From IMG/VR virus record IMGVR_UViG_3300037249_000225, positions 1 through 36,157 of that record: 36,157 bases of DNA. The stretch is one strand, 5' to 3'. Of this stretch, positions 34,665 through 35,433 are shown piece by piece. How positions within the stretch are numbered: the stretch's first letter is position 1; every line of letters starts with the position of its first letter. The DNA comes from a virus. Both the position numbers and the translations under genes were made by a program. The notes beneath the pieces are model-generated. The model was not told where the DNA came from, ran no database searches, and saw only the letters and a list, made by a program, of their open reading frames with translations.

Positions 34665-34833
34665 TTATCCTATAAGAAAATCTGTCGCAAGCGGGACTAT
34701 TCTTGAAGCATCCGCACCTGTAAGTCCGCGGTAAAGAAGCTGTAAAAATCTACAAAGAAGCCAACCAGAAGCGTAAAGACGCTTCCAAAACAGGCGCCGA
34801 AGCATTAAAAAAGAAATTTAACGGAAGGCTTAA

Positions 34834-35433
34834 ATGACAGAATATGACATACTCCGTCTGTCCGAGGATAATGCACACCTCATAAAAGATTTCACCTGCG
34901 TCGAAACAGACGAGATGCTTGCAGATTTTAATTCAAAGGAACGTCGGAGAATTCGTAAACATTCACAGGATATGGAGAACTTCCTGCGTAACGAAGCACT
35001 GGACGATCAAGAAAAAGGATTGAGCCGCACATATTTGTTTGTTGGAAATGACGGTAAGTTGCTTGCATATCTTTCTCTTTGTAATGATGCAATACGATTG
35101 GAATTTGAAGAGCGGGATAATATGGAACTTCCTTATACAACCATTCCTGCAATAAAAGTTGCTCGCCTTGCGGTATCGACACATTGTCAAGGTCAAGGAT
35201 TAGGCAAAGAAGCTCTGCAATTTGCAATATTTGTTTCTCAAACCATAAGAGATTACAGCGGTGTCGTATTCCTTACTTTGGACTGCTATGAGCATAGAGT
35301 AAGCTATTATGAGAGTTTTGGCTTTCAAAGAAATCTATATCAGCCAATAGTGCTTGATTATGATTCACCCGTAAGCATGAGATTATGGATTGACGAGTAT
35401 TTGGCTGAAAGGACTAATCTATGCTGGTTTTGA
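34834..35433 (+). CDS. GNAT-family acetyltransferase of the TacT/AtaT toxin-like type
   Basis: FTCVETDEMLADF...FLRNEALDDQEKGLSRTYLF...LLAYLSL...IPAIKVARLAVSTHCQGQGLGKEAL matches the layout I recall for type II GNAT toxins, including the acetyl-CoA motif QGQGLG. Confidence 0.7.
   Translation: MTEYDILRLSEDNAHLIKDFTCVETDEMLADFNSKERRRIRKHSQDMENFLRNEALDDQEKGLSRTYLFVGNDGKLLAYLSLCNDAIRLEFEERDNMELPYTTIPAIKVARLAVSTHCQGQGLGKEALQFAIFVSQTIRDYSGVVFLTLDCYEHRVSYYESFGFQRNLYQPIVLDYDSPVSMRLWIDEYLAERTNLCWF

Follow-up and report, generated by a model that had tools for sequence, protein, structure and literature searches.

The 36,157-nucleotide (nt) stretch of viral DNA analyzed here (IMG/VR record IMGVR_UViG_3300037249_000225, positions 1–36,157; hereafter the window, meaning this whole stretch) contains, near its right end, an intact gene for a GNAT acetyltransferase resembling the toxins TacT and AtaT. 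The phage carries this gene without its obligate companion gene and without the promoter of the two-gene module to which it belongs. The locus comprises the following features:

34707..35619, + strand: captured cassette fragment of 913 bp, delimited by blastn and alignments, consisting of the partner remnant, the GNAT gene, and a 3′ untranslated region with two hairpins.
34707..34837, + strand: remnant of the 47-residue partner gene, with codons ~6–47 kept and the start codon, ribosome-binding site (RBS), and promoter gone.
34834..35433, + strand: intact GNAT acetyltransferase gene with an ATG start, encoding 199 residues with a predicted TacT/AtaT-like fold and a family-specific basic insertion.
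35464..35495, + strand: strong intrinsic terminator of the cassette, with a 14-bp stem.
~35583..35606: second hairpin of the cassette, just before the right junction.

The GNAT gene begins with the ATG at 34834, 5 nt downstream of a GGAAGG RBS. Over 194 residues, its product is 100% identical to the homologue P0001, and all 44 positions that are invariant in the family alignment (A1) are present; the last five codons (NLCWF) are an extension, the usual stop having been lost to a 2-bp deletion. Members of the family, which comprises at least 194 clusters at 90% identity, are about 195 residues long and share F20, C22, SRTY at 64–67, ARLAV, QGxGxG, and Y159. The acetyl-CoA loop Q/RxxGxG reads QGQGLG in the window, with G122 and G124 invariant. 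The invariant Y159 aligns with the catalytic Tyr of TacT, GmvT, and AtaT2 in the FY motif (Y144 of AtaT), and the conserved Y101 aligns with Y85 of AtaT. The family is further marked by the insertion KERRR(I/V)xKHS and by the LTLDCYEHR and YDSPxSMR blocks, all carried by the window protein.

Pfam returned only generic GNAT domains, NCBIfam nothing meaningful, and PADLOC no match, so that no membership in a known defense system was found. In a phmmer search of the PDB, however, every significant match is a GNAT toxin of a type II toxin–antitoxin (TA) system, including TacT2 (7ak7, 3.7e-9), GmvT (9ilr), AtaT2 (7f37), AtaT (6ajn/6gts), TacT1, TacT3, and KacT. The family profile gave 15 PDB matches at E ≤ 1e-5, exclusively GNAT TA toxins, the best at 4e-14. 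An AlphaFold2 model built from a 26-sequence alignment (mean predicted local distance difference test score of 91.5) was then compared with the PDB using Foldseek; the first 37 places are taken by GNAT TA toxins alone, with TM-scores on the target of 0.73–0.86, whereas generic GNATs score at most 0.63. Sequence and predicted fold thus support a TacT/AtaT-like assignment.

Immediately upstream, a TGA (34835..34837) overlaps the GNAT ATG, and the frame that it ends is open back to a TAA at 34721..34723. These 37 codons (VRGKEAVKIYKEANQKRKDASKTGAEALKKKFNGRLK; VRGKEAVK...GRLK) contain no in-frame ATG, GTG, or TTG, and no other + strand open reading frame (ORF) of at least 25 residues lies between 34676 and 34834. 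The vestige is more than a chance frame because its DNA is 99% identical to the 3′ two-thirds of an intact 47-residue gene in seven rumen-metagenome loci (L001–L006 and L033); to judge from this match, it is what is left of a genuine cognate partner. The remnant carries one extra base at 34722 and is closed by the TAA at 34721..34723, so that it is both beheaded and frame-shifted. A first-pass annotation, made from the sequence alone, had described the 199-residue ORF, the startless 37-codon frame, the TGA overlap, the stop at 34721, and a terminator at 34637..34664. All of these statements are correct, and the GNAT motifs that it cited are present and conserved across the family. Its assignment of the enzyme to the TacT/AtaT/KacT type, apart from generic GNATs, and its view of the frame as the trace of a lost partner are borne out as well.

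In L001–L006, whose GNAT is 100% identical, an intact 47-residue ORF (MATQIASTPVVRGKEAVKIYKEANQKRKDASKTGAEVLKKKFNGRLK) lies directly upstream of the GNAT gene with an ATGA overlap; the 47-residue partner of the intact copies is MATQIASTPVVRGKEAVKIYKEANQKRKDASKTGAEALKKKFNGRLK. It is preceded by GGAGGAGG and an ATG, and about 90 nt further upstream by TTGACC-17-TATAAT with a TG extension. The promoter, GGAGGAGG, and the partner ATG are all three missing from the window. Indeed, blastn places the homology to the intact modules of L001–L006 and L033 at 34707..35619 (98.8–99.0% identity) and finds nothing outside this span. To the left of 34707, the window continues as phage backbone and the intact copies as the first partner codons, RBS, and promoter, the two sequences being unrelated. 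The left breakpoint thus falls within the partner gene, and the first 6–12 codons, the start, the RBS, and the promoter are gone. On the right, homology ends at 35614–35619, just past the second hairpin, and this end is common, within ~10 bp, to three contexts (the window, the L001 type, and L033); the module thus behaves like a self-contained mobile unit.

The window shares its allele with L033, including the same 199-residue product and an Ala instead of a Val in the partner (here in its remnant). Since the partner of L033 is intact, the ancestral state was an intact pair. The first-pass annotation had considered decay of the antitoxin in place, an idea that does not fit the abrupt end of homology at 34707; instead, the alignments indicate that the partner was truncated by recombination at capture, together with loss of the promoter, rather than lost by slow decay. 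Six changes in the fragment are specific to the window. Three of them, including the extra base at 34722, lie within the first 20 bp after the left junction, and all six fall outside the 600-bp GNAT ORF, which makes up 66% of the fragment.

As the cassette is a repeat common to other elements in rumen metagenomes, and repeats can mislead assemblers, the junctions might in principle be an assembly chimera, or the frameshift a sequencing error, in a phage that in reality has no cassette or an intact one. We consider this very improbable. A second contig, L032 (Logan assembly, SRR12150676), is 100% identical to positions 33001..35754 of the window and crosses both junctions, although it possibly derives from the same sample. 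This identity and the six private differences that set the phage copy apart from all others argue against a chimeric assembly. Moreover, the partner start is missing through a structural break, with unrelated sequence upstream, and not through a single-base error, and the contig closes on itself through a 96-nt overlap. We therefore describe the anatomy and origin of the window copy with high confidence.

The gene pair found in the intact copies recurs throughout the family. A partner ORF of 46–53 residues, starting with M(A/P)(T/S)QIAxTP and abutting or overlapping the GNAT start (gap of −17 to +1 nt), lies directly upstream in every locus with enough upstream sequence, i.e., in about 50 loci at 41–100% GNAT identity. 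The loci checked comprise 24 genome loci and one IMG/VR locus at 46–83% GNAT identity, metagenome loci down to 41%, and extra contigs for three homologues; those from genomes belong to Lachnospiraceae, other Clostridia, Fretibacterium, Selenomonadaceae, and Erysipelotrichales. The N-terminus MATQIAxTP is invariant while GNAT identity drops to 46%. The small ORF is under purifying selection, with a ratio of nonsynonymous to synonymous divergence (pN/pS) of ~0.05–0.3 and a median of 0.25 (e.g., pS/pN of 0.21/0.01 for L014–L028 and 0.56/0.06 for L017–L020), which marks it as a genuine protein-coding gene. Searched exhaustively with a profile, 1.84 billion representatives yielded 104 partner clusters (at 50% identity), essentially all of them stand-alone small proteins. 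Longer N-termini in some homologues were considered as a hidden DNA-binding domain and rejected, as they are miscalled starts upstream of an internal MATQIA, except in two chimeras.

The first-pass annotation had expected a DUF1778 antitoxin of the ribbon-helix-helix (RHH) type at this position. This identity was rejected for both the vestige and the intact partners, which find no match in Pfam, NCBIfam, PADLOC, or PHROGs even at E ≤ 10; the partner profile also has no match in the PDB, though chains of TacA, AtaR, KacA, and GmvA are deposited there. The AlphaFold2 model of the partner, of moderate confidence, shows an extended N-terminus of 12 residues followed by a single helix (residues 13–42) and no RHH fold. 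The protein is strongly basic, with a median isoelectric point (pI) of 10.2 and a net charge of +8.5 for the window-type allele, in contrast to the GNAT family, which is acidic (median pI of 5.5; net charge of −11 for the window protein). The partner thus appears to be a new family without detectable relation to TacA, AtaR, or KacA, and the pair of MATQIA protein and GNAT is a previously undescribed two-gene module. Its contexts include serine recombinases with Abi_C, and DUF3879/DUF4885 elements.

Broken copies were also found. Five relatives (L012, L030, L111, L112, and L113) combine an intact partner ORF with a GNAT gene disrupted by a nonsense mutation, frameshift, or internal deletion, and no broken partner behind its native promoter was seen among the relatives examined. 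Loss of the GNAT with retention of the partner is the direction expected for a toxin gene, with the reservation that assembly errors in metagenome-assembled genomes may account for some lesions. In L115 and L116, a deletion takes the C-terminal half of the partner together with the first 67 GNAT residues. The locus L120 (1358–1691) encodes a DUF3990 N-terminus fused in frame to partner residues ~11–47, followed by a family GNAT, and adjoins a Fic/DUF6788 gene; we read it as a second independent replacement of the partner 5′ end, in which the helix is still translated and the invariant N-terminus is lost. In the 94-residue protein P0176, a RelB/DinJ-like RHH N-terminus (MARPRTNTVAIMVRVNGDLKKQAEAIYEEMGITL...) is fused to the partner from STPIIQG onwards, and this may be either a natural antitoxin chimera or a frameshifted junction.

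The phage itself is a complete circular temperate genome of 36,061 bp, as shown by an exact 96-nt terminal overlap (1–96 = 36062–36157), and encodes portal, head morphogenesis, major head, and tape measure proteins and a primase. The late/lysis region runs across the circular junction. The surroundings of the cassette are as follows:

32755..33132: CI-like helix-turn-helix repressor gene, upstream of the integrase.
33270..34304, + strand: tyrosine integrase gene (Phage_integrase).
34312..34352, + strand: stretch resembling the 3′ end of a transfer RNA (tRNA) or transfer-messenger RNA (tmRNA), with T-arm GGTTCGAATCC, acceptor strand, and ACCA, read directly from the sequence.
34637..34664, both strands: bidirectional terminator of the phage backbone, a G+C-rich hairpin with A-/T-run flanks, 43 nt before the left junction.
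35739..36149, − strand: last gene of the late/lysis region, facing the cassette, with a weak, sub-threshold Amidase_2 match.
214..933, − strand: endolysin gene (CW_7 and NlpC/P60), across the circular junction.

The stretch at 34312..34352, directly after the integrase stop, is the presumed core of the phage attachment site attP, for which a weak match to a tmRNA model is the only statistical support. The cassette therefore occupies a module boundary between the attP region and the lysis genes, with terminators and no promoter of its own found, and after integration it would lie at the end of the prophage away from the integrase, in line with the prophage-edge position given in the first-pass annotation. 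The terminator at 34637..34664 insulates the GNAT gene from upstream + strand transcription, and no sigma-70-like promoter (at least 9/12) was found between this terminator and the GNAT start. Neutralization by an RNA, another earlier suggestion, found no candidate: nothing around the GNAT gene came near any Rfam gathering score for an RNA antitoxin or a known small RNA.

Among known systems, the GNAT–DUF1778 TA pairs (TacAT, AtaRT, KacAT, GmvAT, and ItaRT/AtaT2) provide the best sequence and structure matches of the window GNAT. Shared features are the F-x-C block, the SRT(Y/F) strand, the acetyl-CoA loop, the catalytic Tyr, the Tyr equivalent to AtaT Y85, a small upstream gene that overlaps the GNAT start in the intact relatives, and mobile-element contexts. 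In contrast, the partner is a basic 47-residue protein without RHH and not detectably DUF1778, the family is centered on Clostridia and other anaerobes, and the window copy has no intact partner. The acidic enzyme also differs from AtaT in that it lacks the basic α1 and loop residues needed for toxicity and carries an 18-residue basic insertion instead. According to Bikmetov et al. (2022, NAR, PMC9177977), Firmicutes have almost no GNAT toxins, and toxin homologues outside the "true TA clade" are preceded by short divergent ORFs without a predictable DNA-binding domain, their function (as antitoxins of unidentified type or in other roles) being left open. The DUF4065–GNAT pairs described in the same study show that the antitoxin family of a GNAT toxin can be exchanged. 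The MATQIA/GNAT family fits this unexplored category, as it is bicistronic and TA-like with a short upstream ORF devoid of a DNA-binding domain. However, the MATQIA partner is not described in that study, and it forms a single, strongly conserved family rather than divergent ORFs. The E. coli toxin OrtT (PMC4344625) likewise belongs to a toxin family and has no adjoining cognate antitoxin gene. Yet OrtT is a membrane toxin of a different family, and the orphan state here came about secondarily, when a two-gene module underwent a datable truncation.

We favor the following explanation, to which, taken as a whole, we give an even chance. The 47-residue basic MATQIA gene and the TacT/AtaT-like GNAT gene, with overlapping stop and start, form a mobile module, from which a 36-kb temperate phage of rumen Clostridia recently took a fragment by illegitimate recombination with another element. 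With the left break in the partner gene, the GNAT kept its RBS and terminators, and the strong promoter of the module, the partner RBS and start, and the invariant N-terminus were lost. In its intact form, the module most likely acts like a type II TA system, with the small basic protein binding the acidic GNAT and holding it in check. This reading is drawn from the homology to TA toxins, the small-gene-first order, the translational coupling, the strict co-occurrence, the mobile and defense contexts, and the pattern of decay, and on the present analysis such a mechanism is about as probable as its absence. The orphan GNAT would be tolerated as silent or weakly expressed cargo, promoterless and behind a terminator, and would survive because the capture event also removed the promoter. 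Neutralization in trans would be possible where the host carries a near-identical intact module. We regard the phage orphan as a by-product of cassette capture and as a useful natural knock-out.

Several observations weigh against this explanation. In AtaT, toxicity depends on basic residues that contact the acceptor end of the tRNA, namely H34, R37, and R40 of helix α1 and K77–K82 (PMC7595197). In the family described here, the corresponding positions in α1 and in the loop before the PxPIP strand are occupied by conserved acidic residues ("RNEALDDQE" and "EFEERDNMELPYTTIP", EFEERD), where TacT and GmvT have "RRNMP" and "LRHNMP"; E93 is invariant. An invariant basic cluster in the 18-residue insertion, KERRR(I/V)xKHS (KERRRIRKHS at residues 35–44 in the window), might substitute for the lost patch through R37–R39 and H43. 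The charge polarity of the pair (−11 and +8.5) is the reverse of that of TacT2 (pI of 9.2), and the predicted partner structure has no DNA-binding domain. The 5:0 asymmetry of decay is not significant, as the GNAT gene is four times longer than the partner gene. Furthermore, the one additional sample with this phage showed no intact module. Finally, the absence of all six private changes from the ORF has P ~0.002 under neutrality, or ~0.04 when only the three downstream changes are counted. With six changes in total, this is suggestive but weak, and it hints that the GNAT is still under selection and not dead cargo. Accordingly, the term toxin used in the first-pass annotation holds as a statement of homology, and for this family toxicity and action on tRNA are putative.

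The same surface chemistry raises the possibility that the pair is not a TA system. The basic protein could be a substrate of the GNAT, acetylated on Ala2 after removal of Met or on its lysines, or an obligatory subunit, and the phage copy would then be a functionless leftover. An acidic enzyme next to a Lys-rich partner, the loss of the canonical tRNA-binding motifs to conserved acidic residues, the lack of a DNA-binding domain in the partner, and the invariance of MATQIAxTP against the divergence of the GNAT to 46% identity would all suit this role, and other functions were left open for GNATs outside the DUF1778 clade (PMC9177977). On the other hand, every closest solved structure is a toxin that acetylates aminoacyl-tRNA, the conserved basic insertion (RRR, K/R, and H) could replace the lost patch, and no other modification or export genes accompany the pair, whose gene order, 4-nt overlap, and mobile and defense-island contexts are TA-like. 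We therefore rate a substrate or subunit role as rather unlikely, though it deserves more weight than the other alternatives considered here.

The bias of the private changes bears on another possibility, namely that the orphan, released from its inhibitor, is a functional phage moron, expressed for example by read-through during infection. The earlier proposal of a repurposed moron is neither supported nor excluded by the present data. The ORF is intact with its own RBS and matches PHROG 1758, a location flanked by attP and the lysis genes is where morons are classically found, and the absence of changes from the ORF, with P ~0.002 under neutrality (~0.04 without the three junction-proximal changes), points in the same direction; six changes, however, represent too little divergence for a real test of selection. 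No promoter was detected, a strong terminator lies 170 nt upstream, and the phage type is rare, being represented by two contigs, whereas at least 14 carry the intact module. We consider such a function unlikely. On this view, acetylation of a host target by the GNAT would serve to shut off the host, to exclude superinfecting phages, or to defend the lysogen in the manner of abortive infection.

Distant pairs of a GNAT and a small ORF do occur at comparable sites in deposited phages. In Acinetobacter phage YMC/09/02/B1251 (YP_007010620/621; L118, 1318–2028) and Listeria phage vB_LmoS_293 (ORF26/27; L119, 1235–1950), GNATs with 27–28% identity each follow a basic ORF of 49–59 residues that is annotated as hypothetical. 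The Listeria pair lies between endolysin and integrase, as does the window copy. Against the partner profile, hhalign aligned the Acinetobacter ORF with a probability of 81.5% (E of 1e-5), and this ORF is a probable remote homologue of the MATQIA partner; Listeria ORF26 has no detectable homology to it. These phages, like the phage copy L031, differ from the window in that they retain the upstream small ORF, which speaks against a moron role of the GNAT on its own. A distant homologue in the Mycobacterium prophage prophi52-1 has a DUF1778-like antitoxin instead. No functional characterization of phage pairs of a GNAT and a small ORF was found in the literature searched.

No related phage with an empty or intact site was found, the best integrase relatives in IMG/VR being at most 51% identical. 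No contig other than L032 carries the window integrase, GenBank phages have nothing in common with 30000..36157 beyond 129 bp, and the junction and att-core patterns are absent from IMG/VR.

Elsewhere in the phage, the non-coding region on the attP side (34400–34600) contains repeated GGGATTTGACA and GTTGACAAAATATGCTTAAAAT motifs and a TATAAT at ~34575, with the 34637–34664 terminator following ~60 nt later. These could be candidate binding sites of the integrase or repressor and a short phage transcript, for which no Rfam family reached threshold. A phage tRNA at 18673–18747 (− strand) has the anticodon CAT and a G1–A72 mismatch atop the acceptor stem and lacks the three G–C pairs of the initiator anticodon stem; it could be a Met elongator, an Ile2 tRNA, or an unusual initiator, which would be relevant if the GNAT targets Met-tRNA as AtaT does. 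A low-GC island at 12000–14000 (0.36–0.41 compared with ~0.50), between the head and packaging genes, includes an ORF at 12716..13546 (− strand) for a DUF3800 protein; this gene is probably another accessory acquisition. The ORF 31730..32302 (− strand), encoding a DUF7666 protein with a TrAA12-like repeat region, contains a tandem 12/18-nt repeat (GCCGTCGCCGTA-type, 18 registers) at 31728–32070.

What counts as a GNAT toxin has so far been decided largely by its DUF1778 antitoxin. The locus described here points to a large family, centered on gut and rumen Clostridia and other anaerobes, that is strictly linked to an undescribed mini-partner and whose altered surface chemistry may reflect a different substrate or mode of inhibition. 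The same enzyme allele occurs with its partner and promoter (L033) and without them (the window); in this natural experiment, two short constructs suffice for tests of toxicity, neutralization, and target, and the cultured Acinetobacter and Listeria phages offer tractable systems for the pair of GNAT and small ORF. In its boldest and, in our estimate, improbable form, the MATQIA/GNAT module would be a new class of GNAT TA system, common among Clostridia and other anaerobes, in which the antitoxin is a 47-residue mini-protein that does not bind DNA and blocks the acceptor pocket by inserting its invariant N-terminus as a pseudo-substrate, and the phage copy is a functional, unguarded toxin. If so, the phage would either use the unguarded toxin itself or need hosts whose resident element supplies the antitoxin in trans, and the host range of the phage would be coupled to a mobile element of its host.

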